Both the position numbers and the translations under genes were made by a program. Below, piece by piece: positions 1,180-12,030 of a DNA stretch of 64,000 nt (position 1 is the first letter of the stretch; every line of letters begins with the position of its first letter). This stretch comes from Escherichia coli (GTDB lineage Bacteria > Pseudomonadota > Gammaproteobacteria > Enterobacterales > Enterobacteriaceae), in assembly GCF_965641715.1 (NCBI RefSeq), contig NZ_OZ282453.1. One strand, 5' to 3'. The notes beneath the pieces are model-generated. The model worked only from the letters and a program-made list of their open reading frames with translations, had not been told where the DNA came from and made no database searches.

Positions 1180-3621
1180 ATGAGCAATAACGTCAGAATC
1201 GAGGTGCTGCTGAACGCAGTCGACCGGGCAAGCCGCCCGCTTAAAGCGATTCAGAACGCCAGCAAATCCCTGTCCGGTGATATCCGCAATTCACAAAAAA
1301 GCCTGCGCGAACTTAATGCGCAGGCGTCCCGTATTGACGGATTCCGCAAAGCCAGCGCACAGCTTGCCGTGACCGGTCACTCGCTTGAGAAAGCGAAACA
1401 GGAAGCGCAAGCCCTTGTCACGCAATTTAAAAACACCGAGCGCCCGACACGTGCGCAGGCGCAGGTGCTTGAATCGGCAAAGCGTGCCGCCGACGGGCTG
1501 CAGACGAAATACAACAGCCTAACTGAGTCTGTGAAACGCCAGCAACGCGAGCTCGGTGCTGTCGGGATTAATACCCGTAATCTGGCAAATGATGAGCGGG
1601 GGCTCAAATCGCGCATCAGTGAGACGACTGCGCAGCTCAATCGGCAGCGTGAGGCACTGGCGAAAGTCAGCGCACAGCAGGCAAAGTTAAGCCGGGTGAA
1701 AGCGCGGTATCAGGCCGGTAAATCGCTTGCCGGTAGCATGGCGGCGGCTGGCGCGGCCGGTGTCGGTATTGCGACAACAGGAACCATGGCCGGGGTCAAG
1801 CTGCTGACGCCGGGTTATGAATTTGCACAGAAAAACTCAAAGCTGCAGGCAGTGCTCGGTGTCGACAAACAGTCGCCTGAAATGCAGGCGCTGCGTAAAC
1901 AAGCGCGCCAGCTCGGTGACAATACCGCTGCCTCTGCCGATGATGCGGCGGGTGCGCAGATTATCATCGCGAAAAGCGGCGGTGATGCGGCGGCCATTCA
2001 GGCGGCGACGCCGGTCACACTGAATATGGCGCTGTCCAACAAGCGCACGATGGAAGAGAACGCCGCGCTGCTGACGGGCATGAAATCCGCTTTCCAGCTC
2101 TCTAACGATAAAGTCGCGCATATTGGCGATGTTCTCTCGATGACGATGAACAAAACCGCCGCTGACTTTGACGGGATGAGCGATGCGCTGACCTATACCG
2201 CGCCGGTGGCGAAAAATGCCGGGGTGAGTATCGAAGAAACCGCCGCGATGGTGGGGGCGCTGCACGATTCTAAAATCACCGGCTCGATGGCGGGTACAGG
2301 GAGCCGTGCCGTTCTGAGTCGCCTGCAGGCGCCGACCGGTAAAGCCTACGACGCCATCAAAGAGCTCGGCATTAAAACGAGCGACAGCAAAGGCAATACG
2401 CGCCCGATATTTTCCATCCTGAAGGAAATGCAGCGCAGTTTTGAGAAAAACAATCTCGGAACGGGTCAGAAAGCCGAATACATGAAAACCATTTTCGGTG
2501 AAGAAGCCAGCTCAGCGGCCGCTGTGCTGATGGCCGCCGCATCAAACGGCAAGCTCGACCAGCTCACCGCCGCGTTTAAAGCCTCGGACGGCAAGACTGA
2601 GGAGCTGGTTAAGGTTATGCAGGATAACCTCGGCGGCGACTTTAAAGAGTTTCAGTCAGCCTATGAGGCGGTTGGCACTGACCTGTTTGATCAGCAGGAG
2701 GGCTCACTGCGTAAGCTGACGCAGACGGCCACGCAATATGTGCTCAGGCTCGACGGCTGGATCCAGAAAAATAAAGGGCTGGCGACCACCATCGGCGTGG
2801 TGGTCGGGGGTGCGCTGGCGCTGATTGGTGTAATGGGCGGGATTGGCCTTGTCGCATGGCCGGTGGTAATGGGGATTAATGCCATCATTGCGGCGGCTGG
2901 CGTGCTCGGTGTGGTTTTCAGTACGGTTGGAGGCGCGATTGTCACGGCCATTGGCGCAATCAGCCTGCCGGTGCTGGCGGTTGCCGGTGCCGTGGTGGCC
3001 GGTGCGTTGCTGATCCGTAAATACTGGGAGCCGCTCGGTGCATTTTTCTCGGGCGTGGTGGAGGGACTGAAAGCCGCCTTTGCACCGGTGGGGGACATGT
3101 TTACCCCGCTCGCGCCGGTGTTTGACGCCATCGCTGAAAAGCTGGGTGTCGTCTGCCAGTGGTTTAAAGACCTGCTTGCGCCGGTGAAAGCCACGCAGGA
3201 CACGCTCTCCAGTTGCAAAAATGTCGGCGTTACTTTTGGTCAGGCGCTGGCTGATGCGCTGATGATGCCGCTCAAGATGTTTAACAGCCTGAGCGGCAAG
3301 GTCGGCTGGCTGCTGGAGAAACTCGGCGTTATCAAAAAAGAATCCAGCGACCTCGACCAGACCGCAGCGAAAGCGAATAAGGCGTCCCCGAATGGCGGGT
3401 ATATCCCTGCGACCGCAGGTTATGGCGGGTATCAGGCGTATCAGCCGGTCACAGCGCCCGCAGGCCTGTCTTATATCGACCAGAGCAAAAGCGAATACAA
3501 CATCAACCTGCAGGGCGGAGTCGCACCGGGCAGTGACCTTGACCGCCAGCTCCGTGACGCGGTCGACAAACTTGACCGCGAGAAACGTGCGCGTCAGCGA
3601 TCCAGTATGAGACTCGACTGA
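1180..3621 (+). CDS. P2-like phage tail tape measure protein (gpT family)
   Basis: 813-aa ORF; Ala/Gln/Lys-rich N-terminal half and long Gly/Ala/Val-rich hydrophobic segment; position between E/E' and U. Confidence 0.9.
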   Translation: MSNNVRIEVLLNAVDRASRPLKAIQNASKSLSGDIRNSQKSLRELNAQASRIDGFRKASAQLAVTGHSLEKAKQEAQALVTQFKNTERPTRAQAQVLESAKRAADGLQTKYNSLTESVKRQQRELGAVGINTRNLANDERGLKSRISETTAQLNRQREALAKVSAQQAKLSRVKARYQAGKSLAGSMAAAGAAGVGIATTGTMAGVKLLTPGYEFAQKNSKLQAVLGVDKQSPEMQALRKQARQLGDNTAASADDAAGAQIIIAKSGGDAAAIQAATPVTLNMALSNKRTMEENAALLTGMKSAFQLSNDKVAHIGDVLSMTMNKTAADFDGMSDALTYTAPVAKNAGVSIEETAAMVGALHDSKITGSMAGTGSRAVLSRLQAPTGKAYDAIKELGIKTSDSKGNTRPIFSILKEMQRSFEKNNLGTGQKAEYMKTIFGEEASSAAAVLMAAASNGKLDQLTAAFKASDGKTEELVKVMQDNLGGDFKEFQSAYEAVGTDLFDQQEGSLRKLTQTATQYVLRLDGWIQKNKGLATTIGVVVGGALALIGVMGGIGLVAWPVVMGINAIIAAAGVLGVVFSTVGGAIVTAIGAISLPVLAVAGAVVAGALLIRKYWEPLGAFFSGVVEGLKAAFAPVGDMFTPLAPVFDAIAEKLGVVCQWFKDLLAPVKATQDTLSSCKNVGVTFGQALADALMMPLKMFNSLSGKVGWLLEKLGVIKKESSDLDQTAAKANKASPNGGYIPATAGYGGYQAYQPVTAPAGLSYIDQSKSEYNINLQGGVAPGSDLDRQLRDAVDKLDREKRARQRSSMRLD

Positions 3622-5866: not shown

Positions 5867-6718
5867 TTGAACAATATCCCCATATCTACTCAATGGACTT
5901 TAGACGCTACGGGTGAAGTTGGACGCTCATCAGTAAATTCTGTTTATATGATTATATGTCCTGCGACAGGCTCGAAAGGATCTGGTTTTTTAATAGATAA
6001 TGGGTTAATAGTAACGAACGAGCATGTTATCACTGGATGCTCTACAAATCAGATTTTCGCAATTTCAGCTTATGGACAGAAGATTCCAATTTCTCAAAAA
6101 TGGATAGATTCTGATCGCGATTTAGCTGTGCTGAGACCTGCCATTACCCAGACTGGTGGGCTAAGTATTGTTAAGGATAATGATCTTAAAGTTGGTGAAT
6201 CAGTAACAACTTGGGGATACCCATTAGGATACAACGGTCCTGCACCGTTACTATCCGTTGGTTATCTAGCAGGATTTAACTCATACCAAACCGCCAAGGG
6301 ACAAAAAAAACATCTAGTGGTAAATGGGGCATTTAACTCAGGAAATTCTGGTGGAGCTCTTTTAAAAGCTTCAGATAATAAAGTAATAGGTATTGTAGTG
6401 AGTAAGCATGCTCCTATCAGTCAATACCATCAATCAGCTATTGAAGCTTTGTCTGAAAATATGAGTGGCGTCACCTATACCGCTACTAATGACGCTGGAG
6501 AAACTAAAAGTTTTGTAGAATCTCAAATTGTAGCAGAATTATTGATTCATATGAGAAGTCTAACTCAAGTTATGATTGGAGAAGCAATTGCAGCAGAGGA
6601 ATTACTTTCGATGCTTAGCGAAATTGACTTGAGTCCACCACAATCTATGTCAAGAAATGCCTTATGTCATTGCGGGAGTGGAAAACGCTTCAAAGAATGT
6701 CATGGAAAGATATCCTAG
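5867..6718 (+). CDS. Prophage cargo protein: cytoplasmic HtrA/DegP-like (S1C, trypsin-fold) serine protease domain fused to C-terminal SEC-C zinc-binding motif
   Basis: 283-aa ORF with TTG start 6 nt after an AAGGAG Shine-Dalgarno. Motifs: GSGFLI...TNEHV (His about aa 53), DLAVL (Asp about aa 85), GNSGGAL (Ser about aa 161), as in the DegP/HtrA catalytic triad. C-terminus CHCGSGKRFKECHG matches the SecA SEC-C zinc motif. No signal peptide, no PDZ domain. Visibly AT-rich relative to flanks. Confidence 0.75.
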   Translation: MNNIPISTQWTLDATGEVGRSSVNSVYMIICPATGSKGSGFLIDNGLIVTNEHVITGCSTNQIFAISAYGQKIPISQKWIDSDRDLAVLRPAITQTGGLSIVKDNDLKVGESVTTWGYPLGYNGPAPLLSVGYLAGFNSYQTAKGQKKHLVVNGAFNSGNSGGALLKASDNKVIGIVVSKHAPISQYHQSAIEALSENMSGVTYTATNDAGETKSFVESQIVAELLIHMRSLTQVMIGEAIAAEELLSMLSEIDLSPPQSMSRNALCHCGSGKRFKECHGKIS

Positions 6719-6956: not shown

Positions 6957-6983
6957 AAAAAATAAGCCCGTGTAAGGGAGATT
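6957..6983. other. P2-type attachment site core (prophage attR), identical to the 3' end of cyaR
   Basis: Sequence AAAAAATAAGCCCGTGTAAGGGAGATT matches the 27-nt P2 att core as I recall it; lies at the junction between prophage cargo and the host cyaR gene. Confidence 0.55.
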
Positions 6984-7043
6984 ACACAGGCTAAGGAGGT
7001 GGTTCCTGGTACAGCTAGCATTTTATGGGTTATGTTTTTCAGC
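6957..7043 (-). ncRNA. cyaR: CyaR (RyeE) Hfq-dependent sRNA
   Basis: Minus-strand sequence GCUGAAAAACAUAACCCAUAAAAUGCUAGCUGUACCAGGAACCACCUCCUUAGCCUGUGUAAUCUCCCUUACACGGGCUUAUUUUUU matches CyaR from memory, including the CCUCCU anti-SD loop and terminator; a TGTGA CRP half-site lies about 40 nt upstream. Confidence 0.8.
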
Positions 7044-7127
7044 GAAGCGGATGATAACCTTAATAAATGCAGCTGTATGTGATCGGTTTCTAAGAATTTT
7101 CCATCCGGGAAAAATAATCGAAATTAA

Positions 7128-8489
7128 TCACTTACCGTGGGGGTTACGCGTGGTTTCCCCGGAGAAATTACGCATCAGCAGCGCGTAATTTAGCTCAAGA
7201 TCCTGCGGCACCGGGAGCCACACAGTATAACCATCGCCTGGTGCTATCGGCATAGCTTCGCCTTTGGCGTTTTCCATGTGCTCAAGGGTAAAGTTAATGT
7301 TGCCTTGCGGCGTCATCAGCTCAAGGCTGTCGCCAACGGAGAATTTATTTTTCACCGCTACCGCCGCGAGGTCCCCCTTGCGCTCACCGGTAAACTCACC
7401 AACAAACTGCTGGCGGTCAGAAACCGAATAACCGTATTCGTAGTTCTGATAATCGTCGTGAGTATGACGACGCAGGAAACCTTCGGTATAGCCACGATGC
7501 GCCAGACCTTCCAGAGTTTCTAGCAGGCTGGTATCGAACGGTTTGCCCGCAGCGGCATCATCGATAGCTTTGCGGTAAACCTGTGCGGTGCGTGCGCAAT
7601 AGTAGAAAGATTTAGTACGGCCTTCGATTTTCAGCGAATGCACGCCCATTTTGGTCAGGCGTTCTACATGGGCGATGGCGCGCAGATCTTTCGAGTTCAT
7701 GATGTAAGTGCCGTGCTCATCTTCAAACGCGGTCATATACTCGCCCGGACGCTGGGCTTCTTCGATCATAAACACTTTGTCGGTTGGCGCGCCGATACCC
7801 AGCGTCGGCTCAACATTTTGCACCGGAATCGGCTCGTACTTGTGTACGATGTTGCCAACATCATCTTCTTTCCCTTCCTGGACGTTGTACTCCCAGCGGC
7901 AGGCGTTGGTGCAGGTACCCTGGTTCGGATCGCGCTTGTTGATATAGCCAGAGAGCAGGCAGCGACCGGAGTAGGCCATGCACAGTGCGCCGTGAACGAA
8001 GATCTCGATCTCCATATCCGGCACCTGATTGCGGATCTCTTCAATCTCTTCCAGCGACAGCTCGCGAGAGAGGATCACGCGGGTCAGGCCCATTTGCTGC
8101 CAGAATTTCACCGTTGCCCAGTTTACGGCGTTAGCCTGCACCGAGAGGTGGATCGGCATTTCAGGGAAGTGCTCACGCACCAGCATAATCAGCCCTGGAT
8201 CGGACATAATCAGCGCATCCGGCCCCATTTCCACCACCGGTTTCAGGTCACGGATAAAGGTTTTCAGCTTGGCGTTGTGCGGTGCAATGTTGACCACGAC
8301 ATAAAACTTTTTCCCCAGCGCGTGGGCTTCATTGATGCCGAGCTGAAGATTTTCGTGGTTGAATTCGTTGTTGCGCACACGCAGGGAGTAACGCGGCTGG
8401 CCCGCATAAACAGCATCTGCGCCATAAGCGAAAGCGTAACGCATATTTTTCAGCGTTCCCGCCGGGGAAAGGAGTTCCGGTTTAAACAT
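7128..8489 (-). CDS. rlhA: U32-family peptidase-like protein YegQ/RlhA (23S rRNA 5-hydroxycytidine synthase)
   Basis: 453-aa ORF recognised as E. coli YegQ (MFKPELLSPAGTLKNMRYAFAYGADAVYAGQPRYSLR...); conserved position next to cyaR. Confidence 0.9.
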   Translation of the reverse strand: MFKPELLSPAGTLKNMRYAFAYGADAVYAGQPRYSLRVRNNEFNHENLQLGINEAHALGKKFYVVVNIAPHNAKLKTFIRDLKPVVEMGPDALIMSDPGLIMLVREHFPEMPIHLSVQANAVNWATVKFWQQMGLTRVILSRELSLEEIEEIRNQVPDMEIEIFVHGALCMAYSGRCLLSGYINKRDPNQGTCTNACRWEYNVQEGKEDDVGNIVHKYEPIPVQNVEPTLGIGAPTDKVFMIEEAQRPGEYMTAFEDEHGTYIMNSKDLRAIAHVERLTKMGVHSLKIEGRTKSFYYCARTAQVYRKAIDDAAAGKPFDTSLLETLEGLAHRGYTEGFLRRHTHDDYQNYEYGYSVSDRQQFVGEFTGERKGDLAAVAVKNKFSVGDSLELMTPQGNINFTLEHMENAKGEAMPIAPGDGYTVWLPVPQDLELNYALLMRNFSGETTRNPHGK

Positions 8490-8591
8490 AATTCTCTCGT
8501 TCTGATGACAGGTCAGATCCGCTTCACCTGATGAAGCGGTTAGGGGAGTGCCCCCACTTTAAGGGCGGGCATTGTAGCGCAATCGGCGGGT

Positions 8592-8888
8592 TTAGCTCCA
8601 GTGTAAATGTCTGGTGGCGTCCTGGTTTTGGTTAAGGATACGAATGACGATAATTTCCCCTGGTGATTGCAGGAAATAAATTACGTGGCGTTCAAAAGGA
8701 AGAACAAAAATACCTTCGCCTAATTCAGGTCTGGGCGTACCTATATTATTGTTACTCAGAATCTGGAGAACGTCTGAAAGATGTTCCACATATCTGTCGG
8801 CTTGTGGTTCGCCGAAATGGTGATAACTGTAATACCAGATGCCTTCTAAATCTTCATTGGCTTTTGGCATGAGTTTAATAATACGCAC
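8592..8888 (-). CDS. ParE/RelE-superfamily type II toxin (ParE-like)
   Basis: 98-aa ORF with ParE-like features (...IVIRILNQNQD...); immediately downstream of, and 1 nt from, a ParD-like antitoxin gene. Start codon uncertain (GTG at 8888 or internal ATG, Met7). Confidence 0.7.
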   Translation of the reverse strand: MRIIKLMPKANEDLEGIWYYSYHHFGEPQADRYVEHLSDVLQILSNNNIGTPRPELGEGIFVLPFERHVIYFLQSPGEIIVIRILNQNQDATRHLHWS

Positions 8889-8889
8889 A

Positions 8890-9141
8890 TTATTTCCTTA
8901 TCCCTGCTTTCACCTTCCGTAAAAACGCGTCCTTTTCCCACGGCTGAGCTTCACCACTACTCAACCCTTCTGCAAGCATGTCACGTAACGCTTGCAGGCG
9001 AGACTCTGCTTGCTTTTCTCGAAGTAAGCGCAGTGACTCACGGATCACTTCGCTTTGGGTGCGATAGTCGCCGGATTCAATTAAGGACTCGATAAATTCA
9101 CGCAACTCATCGCCGAGATCAACCGTCATCGTTCTGGCCAT
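8890..9141 (-). CDS. ParD-like antitoxin (ribbon-helix-helix, CopG family)
   Basis: 83-aa ORF MARTMTVDLGDELREFIESLIESGDYRTQSEVIRESLRLLRE..., typical ParD N-terminal RHH; upstream partner of the ParE-like gene. Confidence 0.75.
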   Translation of the reverse strand: MARTMTVDLGDELREFIESLIESGDYRTQSEVIRESLRLLREKQAESRLQALRDMLAEGLSSGEAQPWEKDAFLRKVKAGIRK

Positions 9142-9384
9142 GTTTATGCTCTCCTGTAAGTAAAAATCTTACATCAGTGTATGTCATAAACCGGATAGCG
9201 TCACGAAAAGTATTAGAAGATATTTTGGCAGATGAACATGTTCAGGAGGATAAGCATGGAGATGTTAAACAAAGAAAGCACAATGAGTATTCATCAGTGT
9301 CCACTATTTTAATGGCGCAGGTAAATAAATAAGCGTTATTTGGAAATAAAGCCGGACGCCAACAATCCACGCCCGGCATCGTAA

Positions 9385-9717
9385 TTACGTATTGTCTTTC
9401 ACCGTCTGGCTTGTGCCATTGGCTTTAACGGAGGCAATTCCGGTTTCACGAGATTGCGCGGTGGCATACATCTGGCTGGAGCCGATAATTTGATGATTGG
9501 CGGCTTTCAGATTGAAATAGAATTTGCCGTTGCTTGCCGTTTTTTTCTCATAGCGTTCTTCTTGCGGGCTGTTGCTACGCACCGACGCGATGCCCTTTTC
9601 CGCAGAGGCTTTTGAAGTATACAGCTCGCTGGTGAGGATAGTCTCACCATTGCCCGCTTTTAGCACAAACCGGAACTGATTATCACTGCTCTTAGTGAGT
9701 TCAAACCAACCAGCCAT
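9385..9717 (-). CDS. yegP: UPF0339 family protein YegP (tandem DUF1508 repeats)
   Basis: 110-aa product MAGWFELTKSSDNQFRFVLKAGNGE... with internal duplication (...KKTASNGKFYFNLKAANHQ...); ATG inside track ORF 9385-9756. Confidence 0.85.
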   Translation of the reverse strand: MAGWFELTKSSDNQFRFVLKAGNGETILTSELYTSKASAEKGIASVRSNSPQEERYEKKTASNGKFYFNLKAANHQIIGSSQMYATAQSRETGIASVKANGTSQTVKDNT

Positions 9718-9907: not shown

Positions 9908-10630
9908 CTAAACGATGCGGCAGGCGTCGGCTTCCCAGCGGTAACCAACGCCGTAAACGGCGCGGATAAATGACTGTTCGGCGTCGAGAGATTCCAGCTT
10001 GCGGCGCAGGTTTTTAATGTGGCTGTCGATGGTGCGGTCGGTTACTACGCGGTAGTCGTCATAAAGATGATTGAGCAATTGCTCGCGGGAGAACACTTTT
10101 CCTGGTTCATGAGAGAGCGTTTTCAGCAGACGAAATTCCGCAGGCGTCAGGTCAAGCATTTTACCGCGCCATGAAGCCTGAAAACGACCTTCGTCGATAA
10201 TCAACGGGCTTTCAGCATCCTGTTGCTGCAACTCACGCTGCGGTTTGCAACGGCGCAAAATGGTTTTGACACGCGCTACCACTTCCCGTGGGCTGTACGG
10301 CTTGCAGATGTAGTCATCTGCGCCAATCTCCAGCCCCAGCAGGCGGTCGATCTCTTCGATTTTTGCTGTCACCATCACGATAGGAATGTCAGAAAAACGA
10401 CGAATTTCCCGGCACAGCGTCAAGCCATCGGTGCCAGGGAGCATCAGATCCAACAGGATCAGATCCGGTGGTGTCTGGCGCACATACGGCAGTACCTGAT
10501 CGCCGTGGCTGATAAGCGTCGGCGCATAGCTCGCAGCACGCAGATAATCAATGAGCAACTGCCCCAGCTTCGGTTCATCTTCCACGATCAAAATACGCGG
10601 TGTGTTTTCGTCGATTGGTAACTCGGTCAT
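9908..10630 (-). CDS. baeR: Two-component response regulator BaeR (OmpR family)
   Basis: 240-aa ORF with receiver domain ([18 protein letters not shown]...D...LMLPGTDG) and winged-helix C-terminus; overlaps baeS stop. Confidence 0.95.
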
Positions 10631-12030
10631 ACTTCTCTCTGTAAATCCCGTTCCAGCGGTAACTCTACTGTAATGCTTACCCCGCCAAAAGGCGAATGGG
10701 CAGCAATAATGCGGCCATTATGTGCTTCAACAATGTTCAGGCAAATCGCCAACCCCAGCCCGGAACCGCCGCTGGCACGGTTGCGGGAACCTTCGGTGCG
10801 ATAAAAACGTTCAAACAATTTTTGTAGCTGATCGTCACTGACACCTGGCGCACTGTCGGCAAAGGTCAGGCGCACCGTTTTGTCGTGCTGCTCGGCAGAG
10901 ATTTTCAGGCTGCCGCCGCTGTCAGTGTAGCGCAGGCTGTTTTCCAGTAAATTATTGAACAACTGCATTAAACGGTCGCGATCGCCAAATACGGTAATAC
11001 TGTCTGGCAGGGAAAATTGCAGTTTCAGGCCACGGCTGGCGAATCGTTCGCGAAATGCGCCGCCCGCCACTTCCAGCAGTGGGATCAAATCTACCGGTGC
11101 TTTTTGATAGGCGAGAGCGCCTTCATCAGACATCGACAACTGATGAAGATCGTCAACCAGTTTGGTCAGTGTACCGACCTCCGCCTGTAAAGACGCCACC
11201 GTCTCCGGCGTGAATTTGCGCACGCCATCCTGAATGGCTTCCAGTTCACCGCGCAGCACCGCTAATGGCGTACGCAGTTCGTGAGAAATATCGGCCATAA
11301 AATCGCGCCGCATTTGCTGGTTTTTCTCCAGCGTGCTGGCGAGCTGGTTGAAGTCTTGCGCCAGTTTGCCCAGTTCATCTTCACTGGTGGGCGTTACGCG
11401 GGTAGTGAAATCGCCCGCCGCCAGTTTGTGCGTGCCGTCCACCAGCCGTTTGACCGGGGCCAAAAGACCACGCGCCAGCAGAAAGGTGGCGAGCGCCGCG
11501 AGTAACGTTGCCAGGGCGACAATCAGCCAGCTGGTTTGCCGCTGTTGTTTATCGAAATTGATATCAGTATTGCGCGTTAACCGCTCAACGGGGGAGGCGA
11601 TCACCGCGCCAACTTCCGCACCGTTGACCAGAATGGGTCGCCGTGTACCGTCAGGTGGAATCGGCGCTCGCGGACCAACCAGCACTTTGTTGTTTTGATC
11701 AACCACCCAGAACTGGGTACGCCAGCCGTGCGGTGGCATACCCGGGCCGGGTTTATCTTCCGAATTATCGTGTTCAAATGAACGCAGGATCTGAAAGACA
11801 AAGCGATCATTGTTGCGCAGGAAGCGCCAGTTACCATGCTGCGCATACTGCTCGCCAAGCGCATCACTTAACAGTTGTAATCGCTGTTCATTACCATGCT
11901 TGATGTAATCAATAAAGCCACGCTCAAAACTGATACGCACCGCCCAGTGCATACTGATCAGCAAGACAATGCAGGTGGCGAAAATCGCCAGAAACAGTTT
12001 GCCGGTAATACCGGGTCGCCAGAACTTCAT
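10627..12030 (-). CDS. baeS: Envelope-stress sensor histidine kinase BaeS
   Basis: 467-aa ORF with two TM segments, HAMP, H-box ([11 protein letters not shown]) and ATPase domain; in mdtABCD-baeSR operon. Confidence 0.95.

Follow-up and report, generated by a model that had tools for sequence, protein, structure and literature searches.

A ParD/ParE-type toxin-antitoxin cassette between yegP and yegQ (trhP) in Escherichia coli, with a predicted operator, a probable correction of the antitoxin start and a history of repeated loss

Among toxin-antitoxin (TA) systems of type II, the ParDE group was founded on the pair of plasmid RK2, in which a ribbon-helix-helix (RHH) antitoxin is combined with a PF05016 toxin that poisons DNA gyrase (PMC7848731, PMC6614396). 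Poisoning of gyrase has also been reported for Vibrio cholerae ParE2 (VcParE2; bioRxiv 10.1101/2025.07.24.666505), for Mycobacterium tuberculosis ParE1 (MtParE1; PMC10899793) and, on indirect evidence, for the ParE of the Yersinia plasmid pYV (PMC10203498). The best match in both sequence and structure to the pair considered here is PrpA/PrpT of the Pseudoalteromonas rubra plasmid pMBL6842 (7YCS; PMC7848731, PMC9731233), which likewise joins a PF03693 antitoxin to a PF05016 toxin. The pair in question, parD and parE, lies between yegP and yegQ (trhP) on a 64,000-nucleotide (nt) stretch of contig NZ_OZ282453.1 of E. coli (assembly GCF_965641715.1), the whole of which is referred to as the window. 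It is read, at a probability of roughly 0.78, as an intact and selectively maintained type II TA operon of the ParD(PF03693)/ParE(PF05016) kind, forming a cassette of 770 nt with the yegP terminator on one side and the yegQ/trhP leader on the other. The architecture is ordinary and this kind of pair is already known; RefSeq names the products a ParD family antitoxin and a RelE/ParE family toxin.

An initial annotation, made from the letters of the window alone, had described two small minus-strand open reading frames (ORFs) of 83 and 98 amino acids (aa) separated by 1 nt, and both the ORF list and the raw sequence bear this out. The 83-aa frame, parD, begins with ATG (8890..9141, minus strand) and the 98-aa frame, parE, with GTG (8592..8888, minus strand); a single base lies between the parD stop codon TAA (8892..8890) and the parE start at 8888, a spacing that suggests translational coupling. 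Two small, adjacent and co-directional genes with closely spaced frames, the antitoxin leading, form the arrangement by which a type II TA operon is recognized. On the minus strand, the order of genes is baeS (10627..12030), baeR (9908..10630), yegP (9385..9717), parD, parE and yegQ/trhP (7128..8489), such that positions 8490-9384 make up the entire yegP-yegQ intergenic region and the insert lies within it. K-12, O157 and E. albertii have approximately 21 nt in place of the 770-nt insert, and the spacer of JM109, a K-12 derivative, is 146 nt long and free of genes; the statement in the initial annotation that this gap is short in K-12 was therefore right. The upstream edge of the insert abuts the terminator hairpin of yegP and its downstream edge falls 11 nt past the parE stop codon. 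Neither a target-site duplication, a flanking direct repeat, a terminal inverted repeat nor a recombinase gene was found at the insert ends in the allele alignments and the sequence, and an Rfam search of the insert returned no match. Two further small ORFs, at 9177..9332 (plus strand) and 9242..9379 (minus strand), were rejected as genes because insertions or deletions of 1 nt and 13 nt between alleles break them. The features of the locus are as follows.

8581..9350 (770 nt), minus strand: accessory insert, comprising the promoter region, parD and parE, as delimited by alignment of occupied with empty alleles
8890..9141, minus strand: parD, RHH antitoxin and presumed autorepressor (PF03693, TIGR02606, match to PrpA)
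8592..8888, minus strand: parE, toxin of the ParE clade (PF05016, PDB sequence matches, AlphaFold2 model with Foldseek)
9155..9173, no strand: candidate ParD operator, the perfect inverted repeat TGTAAG-N7-CTTACA, ending at the Shine-Dalgarno sequence and overlapping the predicted transcription start
9150..9155, minus strand: Shine-Dalgarno sequence of parD, AGGAGA, as read in the window allele
9176..9204, minus strand: predicted sigma-70 promoter of parDE, taken directly from the sequence, with -35 GTGACG (9204..9199), a 17-nt spacer and -10 TACACT (9181..9176)
9233..9244, no strand: 12-bp perfect palindrome TGAACATGTTCA, some 65-70 nt upstream of the predicted parDE start
9351..9377, minus strand: terminator hairpin of yegP, GCCGGGCG...CGTCCGGC followed by a T-run, a terminator-like site in the scan that is kept in empty alleles and belongs to the core flank
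8571..8576, minus strand: TACAAT, a -10-like hexamer preceding yegQ/trhP that persists immediately beyond the edge of the insert

The assignment of the downstream gene product to the ParE toxins draws on three kinds of comparison. The Pfam ParE_toxin model (PF05016) was matched with an E value of 2e-13 over positions 1-88 of its 89, and a sequence search of the PDB returned PrpT (2e-12), MtParE1 (6e-8), Caulobacter crescentus ParE1 (CcParE1; 2e-7) and VcParE2 (7e-7). An AlphaFold2 model built from 33 homologues (predicted local distance difference test score 92, predicted template modelling score 0.83) has a short strand followed by two long helices, residues 8-25 and 27-46, that form an alpha-hairpin, and then strands at 60-65, 68-74 and 78-86 and a short C-terminal helix. 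Compared with the PDB by Foldseek, the model was closest to PrpT (template modelling (TM) score 0.88, root-mean-square deviation 1.1 Å), with VcParE2 and CcParE1 at 0.84 and MtParE1 at 0.83; all of ranks 1-23 were ParE-type toxins, with TM scores of 0.65-0.88 (0.73 or above for 22 of the 23). Because the matches in sequence and in fold are both led by ParE toxins, the protein is placed in the ParE branch of the RelE/ParE superfamily and not in its RNase branch, an assignment that combines sequence comparison with a predicted structure. The Pfam family and the RefSeq name 'RelE/ParE family' each cover both activities, conserved Arg and His residues occur near the toxin C-terminus, and structures of RelE, YoeB and YafQ do appear among the weaker fold matches, all of which would suit a RelE-type, ribosome-dependent mRNA endonuclease with no action on gyrase. 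A toxin of that type would have ribosome-dependent RNases as its closest relatives, and it does not: RelE, YoeB and YafQ enter the Foldseek ranking only from rank 24 onward, at TM 0.50-0.67 and E values of about 1e-3 or weaker, and the PDB sequence search, to E<=1, returned no chain of RelE, YoeB, YafQ or HigB. The long N-terminal alpha-hairpin is typical of ParE, and the toxin is paired with an antitoxin of the PF03693 ParD family, as ParE usually is (PMC7848731). With all of the best sequence matches and the best 23 fold matches being toxins of the ParE clade, an mRNA endonuclease is considered highly improbable.

The identity of the antitoxin is equally consistent across methods. ParD matched the Pfam models ParD_antitoxin (PF03693; 4.7e-19) and RHH_1 (0.0034), and scored 88.4 bits against the NCBIfam model TIGR02606, the curated cutoff of which is 46.2. 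Among proteins of solved structure, PrpA (7ycs chain D; E 1.9e-27, approximately 61% identity over 77 residues) is the best match, followed in the PDB sequence search by ParD2 of V. cholerae and the ParD1 proteins of Caulobacter and M. tuberculosis. The alignment with PrpA spans residues 2-78 and thereby takes in the C-terminal, toxin-binding half, while the DNA-reading beta-strand RTMTVD is identical in the two proteins. The profile search that the initial annotation had suggested thus yielded PF03693 and TIGR02606 for the antitoxin and PF05016 for the toxin, and its description of an RHH ParD-type antitoxin beside a toxin of ParE/RelE fold agrees with the Pfam, NCBIfam and PDB matches and with the predicted fold. 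Both genes are, as judged from their substitution patterns, under purifying selection. Ratios of non-synonymous to synonymous polymorphism (pN/pS) were 0.00-0.04 for parD and 0.00-0.26 for parE overall; between E. coli alleles and E. whittamii, parD differs by 8-11 synonymous changes and 1 non-synonymous change (pN/pS 0.03-0.04) and parE by 9-12 synonymous and 4-7 non-synonymous changes (pN/pS 0.10-0.15). Occasional truncated variants of the toxin are present in public data, and parE is intact in most carriers. Chance ORFs can be set aside because the two frames have family matches, conserved orthologues and pN/pS values well below 1.

The start of the antitoxin gene appears to have been misplaced in existing records. 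For the commoner E. coli allele, RefSeq begins the antitoxin at an upstream ATG to give a product of 98 aa (MTYTDVRFLLTGGRK-MARTMTV…); in E. coli GF3-3, whose cassette is 100% identical to that of the window, the antitoxin gene is flagged as 'frameshifted'. The stretches concerned are 8890..9187 (minus strand) of the window, L002 9491..9788 and L003 1991..2287. The commoner allele has AGGCGG at the Shine-Dalgarno position and one base fewer before the ATG. In the window allele and in that of E. whittamii, the MARTMTV start is preceded by one extra base and a good Shine-Dalgarno sequence, and each of the two alleles encodes the 83-aa ORF. Matches to the family models begin at residue 1 of the 83-aa product, and the upstream ATG lies inside the predicted promoter, upstream of its -10 hexamer, and so would not be transcribed from that promoter. 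For these two reasons the antitoxin is probably 83 aa long, and both the 98-aa model and the frameshift flag are probably artefacts.

Upstream of parD, the perfect inverted repeat TGTAAG-N7-CTTACA occurs once in the 64-kb window, where 0.05 occurrences are expected by chance. Its conservation was followed in the 110 nt 5' of parD from 17 related loci, comprising E. coli alleles, E. whittamii, Buttiauxella, Cedecea, Pantoea, Enterobacter, Citrobacter, Rahnella, a Salmonella plasmid, and two contigs labelled as metagenome-assembled genomes (MAGs) of Clostridia and Flavobacterium. In at least 13 of the 17 loci, representing at least seven genera, the repeat precedes the parD start codon by approximately 32 nt, and most of the remainder carry single-base variants of it. 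As the DNA around the repeat fails to align between genera, its retention in place is good evidence for an operator, and it likely serves as the binding site of ParD. The half-site, (A/T)TTGTAAG, resembles the motif (G/A)TTTG(T/A)AAT(A/G) footprinted with PrpA (PMC9731233). A -10-like hexamer (TATACT, TACACT or CAAACT) is situated 3-4 nt upstream of the inverted repeat in the related loci; the combination TTGACG-17-CAAACT is seen in L013, the contig with the Clostridia label, which is one of the loci of the Citrobacter/Salmonella-plasmid type, and the others of that type have TGGACG. If the parDE promoter is rightly assigned, the operator spans the transcription start, predicted near 9169. Farther upstream, the palindrome TGAACATGTTCA is kept in every E. 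coli allele examined and in E. whittamii. A 7-nt repeat, GTTTATG/CATAAAC, was dropped as a candidate element because it is not conserved in the common allele.

By analogy with PrpA/PrpT, V. cholerae ParDE2, M. tuberculosis ParDE1 and C. crescentus ParDE1, ParD is proposed to dimerize through its N-terminal RHH domain and to bind TGTAAG-N7-CTTACA over the transcription start, thereby repressing the operon, while its C-terminal half would wrap around ParE and neutralize it. Translation of parE would be coupled to that of parD. On depletion of ParD, free ParE would most likely trap DNA gyrase on DNA, leading to a block of replication and to the SOS response; this poisoning of gyrase by the window toxin is extrapolated from its relatives. 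The module would then act as a chromosomal addiction or selfish cassette, and its transfer between lineages would occur mainly through homologous recombination in the flanking DNA.

A number of observations weigh against this reading. No NCBIfam model matched the toxin at E<=0.01, and the family call therefore rests on Pfam, the PDB matches and the fold. PrpT, its closest solved relative, is without documented gyrase activity in PMC7848731 and PMC9731233. Whereas Tyr33 and His68 of the toxin (Tyr33 and His69 of VcParE2) are kept and are invariant in the family alignment, two other positions that matter for the toxicity of VcParE2 are changed, Trp25 to Phe25 and His88 to Asn86. Replacement of Trp25 by Phe lowers the toxicity of VcParE2, and only Tyr at this position keeps it full (bioRxiv 10.1101/2025.07.24.666505); the window toxin may therefore be weak, as is the ParE1 of Pseudomonas aeruginosa. 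The promoter, which is an inference only, agrees with the consensus at 8 of 12 positions, under the scan threshold of 9. Finally, in the Enterobacterales relatives (loci L008-L019 and L037, from Buttiauxella, Cedecea, Pantoea, Enterobacter, Citrobacter and Rahnella), ParD is 67-84% identical to that of the window and ParE only 42-61%, the opposite of the pattern usual for ParE pairs, in which the toxin is more conserved than the antitoxin (PMC7848731). In Citrobacter braakii (L018), ParD is 92% identical and the parE match is only a fragment.

These observations bear on a different account of why the module is kept, namely that its selected function is that of the antitoxin as a DNA-binding regulator, in the manner of PrpA, with the toxin attenuated and with ParD-gated transcription of parDE possibly setting the expression of yegQ/trhP. 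The greater conservation of ParD than of ParE, both across genera and within Escherichia (pN/pS 0.03-0.04 against 0.10-0.15), and the Phe and Asn residues of the toxin at the two positions important in VcParE2 fit such a role, and PrpA, 61% identical, regulates beyond its own operon (PMC7848731). The layout of the downstream junction also fits it. Empty alleles, including that of K-12, have a promoter-like TTTACC-17-TACAAT upstream of yegQ/trhP (L001 1672..1700), and in the occupied allele the -35 partner TTTACC is replaced by the end of the insert (window 8571..8610). A scan of the minus strand of the occupied allele found no promoter-like or terminator-like site between parE and yegQ. With the -35 hexamer lost and no terminator after parE, transcription of parDE may, speculatively, read into trhP, and the expression of trhP may differ between carriers and non-carriers. 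That the cassette is for this reason more than selfish, with ParD-gated transcription driving or modulating the tRNA ho5U34 hydroxylase TrhP in carriers, is regarded as quite unlikely, even though a module kept chiefly for its regulatory role would accord with a strongly conserved ParD beside a ParE that may be attenuated (Phe25, Asn86). The broader account is itself unlikely: the only TGTAAG-N7-CTTACA in the window is at the parDE promoter itself, purifying selection still acts on parE, which most carriers have intact, and about 60% of E. coli, together with E. albertii, express trhP without the module. A functional TA operon thus remains the preferred interpretation.

A comparison of yegP-yegQ spacing across E. 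coli genomes, which the initial annotation had also proposed, placed the insert in 1844 of 5426 complete genomes, about a third, as determined by BLAST, with one copy in each, chromosomal in all and, wherever the context of a copy was inspected, between yegP and yegQ. K-12, O157:H7 and many other E. coli have the empty allele, and this pattern of presence and absence bears out its view of the pair as a small accessory island in a core neighbourhood. The window allele (at least 99% identity) accounts for 99 of the 1844 carriers. E. whittamii holds an intact cassette with the same junctions, its ParD and ParE being 98.8% and 94.9% identical, respectively. In Escherichia sp. E3659 (L065 2834..3176) the cassette has decayed: the first ~85 nt of the insert are fused to the final ~125 nt of parE, with insertions and deletions, and the parE stop codon is changed to CAA. 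In 298 complete E. coli genomes, including that of the type strain ATCC 11775, the yegP-yegQ site is occupied by a 5-kb island on the opposite strand that encodes PcfJ-domain, DUF1266, DUF4034 and hypothetical proteins (for example, E. coli SF-166, NZ_CP012633.1 1823676..1829002; L006/L061). This island is flanked by approximately 70 nt of the upstream end of the insert and by the last 18 nt of parE, and hence it overwrote a pre-existing parDE. The cassette is, from these allele comparisons, old in the genus, polymorphic, and repeatedly lost or overwritten. E. albertii shares the same empty allele almost base for base, and either the empty or the occupied state may therefore be ancestral; the idea that the empty spacer of K-12 (…TTTACCAGAGCCCCCCACA…) represents a scar left by the 3' end of parE (…TTTACACTGGAGCTAAACCCGCCGATT…) was abandoned, given the weak likeness and this shared allele. 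Outside Escherichia, relatives occur in other genomic contexts and share the ParD-ParE order, with either a 1-nt gap or a 14-nt overlap.

Three further observations were made on these alleles. At the joint of the E3659 remnant, approximately 20 nt resemble the end of the SF-166-type island. Among empty alleles (L001, L058, L059, L060, L062 and L063), the 8-9 nt or so between TTTACCAG and ACAGCGCTACAAT vary, with AGCCCCCC, ATCCCCCCT, TTACCTCC and CTCCCCCCT as strain variants, and the surroundings are conserved. In E. coli HS-01 (NZ_CP172817.1; L005 1862..2743), scrambled, homopolymer-rich sequence begins near the parD start codon and gives out shortly ahead of the parE stop codon; the stretch is oddly sharp-edged, its promoter region and both flanks are near-identical to those of other alleles, and it is probably an artefact of assembly or polishing.

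A P2-like prophage fills the window from position 1 to ~6900. The features concerned are the following.

1..~5300: P2-like tail genes, encoding tube, tape measure (1180..3621), gpU-like and gpD-like proteins
6960..7045, minus strand: cyaR small RNA gene (Rfam RF00112, 100.7 bits), beside which the prophage ends

The site beside cyaR is that at which K-12 carries a P2 remnant. Some type II TA systems are known to defend against phage, and with the locus only ~1.5 kb from the prophage end, the initial annotation had raised a contribution to phage defence or to stabilization of the prophage. Neither part of this proposal was upheld. Neither ParD nor ParE matched a PADLOC-DB 2.0 model (E<=0.1), and the defence reading was dropped on that account; no other defence genes adjoin the cassette, and no close relative of the toxin was present in 50,697 phage records. 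As to the prophage, the same cassette occupies the same site without a prophage beside yegQ in GF3-3 (identical) and in E. whittamii, and in the window it stands outside the prophage, separated from it by the core genes yegQ and cyaR. Abortive infection or prophage stabilization is thus judged very unlikely as the role of the pair. A phage origin of the toxin was rejected as well, the phage collection having given one partial match of 62% in a 2-kb record. As a separate observation, a cargo gene at the prophage end (5867..6718, plus strand) codes for a trypsin-like serine protease of 283 aa whose C-terminus bears a SEC-C motif (CHCGSGKRFKECHG). Its protease domain matches the PADLOC models RT-Protease_XI (7e-21), PDC-M35A (6e-13), LmuA and HamA; by these matches, it may be a defence gene borne by the prophage.

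The pair is a standard ParD/ParE that RefSeq has named in more than 1,800 complete E. coli genomes, and in this respect its recognition matters little beyond bookkeeping. What is gained is the corrected start of the 83-aa antitoxin and a well-supported prediction of its operator, along with a clear case, useful for the study of TA dynamics, of a chromosomal cassette that is old in its genus and has been repeatedly deleted or overwritten. It is also relevant to the question of whether gyrase poisons of the ParE type influence quinolone tolerance in E. coli; ParDE families have been associated with such tolerance in a study in which the yegP-yegQ locus was not identified (PMC10575684). A literature search turned up no dedicated study of the locus, of the protein accession, or of yegP/yegQ with ParD/ParE.

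In comparison with described systems, the window toxin is most similar to PrpT (32% identity, E 2e-12, TM 0.88). The two pairs differ in setting: PrpTA is plasmid-borne, and PrpA also binds the iterons of the origin to control copy number, whereas the window pair is chromosomal with no replicon nearby. V. cholerae ParD2/ParE2 (7R5A), M. tuberculosis ParD1/ParE1 (8C24) and Caulobacter ParD1/ParE1 (3KXE) share the toxin fold (TM 0.83-0.84) at 26-30% identity (E 6e-8 to 7e-7), and their antitoxins are RHH partners of the same families as the window ParD. The Trp25 of VcParE2 is common to MtParE1 and CcParE1 and is replaced by Phe in the window toxin; inhibition of gyrase, known for these three toxins, would extend to the window toxin by homology.

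The closest mobile relatives are the ParD/ParE pairs of conjugative plasmids from Salmonella, Klebsiella and Citrobacter, in which the gene order is the same and the toxin is at most 66% identical; a plasmid collection held 266 records in the 60-80% band of toxin identity. One such plasmid, pRM11065-1, has a near-identical operator repeat with a single mismatch. The antitoxin of the conjugative plasmids is 88 aa long and its gene overlaps parE by 14 nt, in contrast to the 83 aa and 1-nt gap of the window pair. The BLAST search of the 5426 complete genomes with the insert found no E. coli plasmid with the chromosomal allele, and the two matches that the plasmid collection gave at 99% are to records 1.4 and 4.8 Mb in length, which are probably chromosomes. 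IncI/IncF ParDE-I was considered and not treated as a close relative because it is described as only 15% identical to CcParE1 (PMC6614396).

The founding RK2 system is the same in outline; its ParD falls in a different Pfam family, PF09386, and the matches of the window pair include neither of the RK2 proteins. In its behaviour, the cassette is matched by the chromosomal ccdO157 (cited in PMC7167474), a TA cassette that likewise sits between core genes in some lineages only, with an empty site in K-12 and decayed copies elsewhere; ccdO157 belongs to the unrelated CcdA/CcdB family and occupies another site, folA-apaH.

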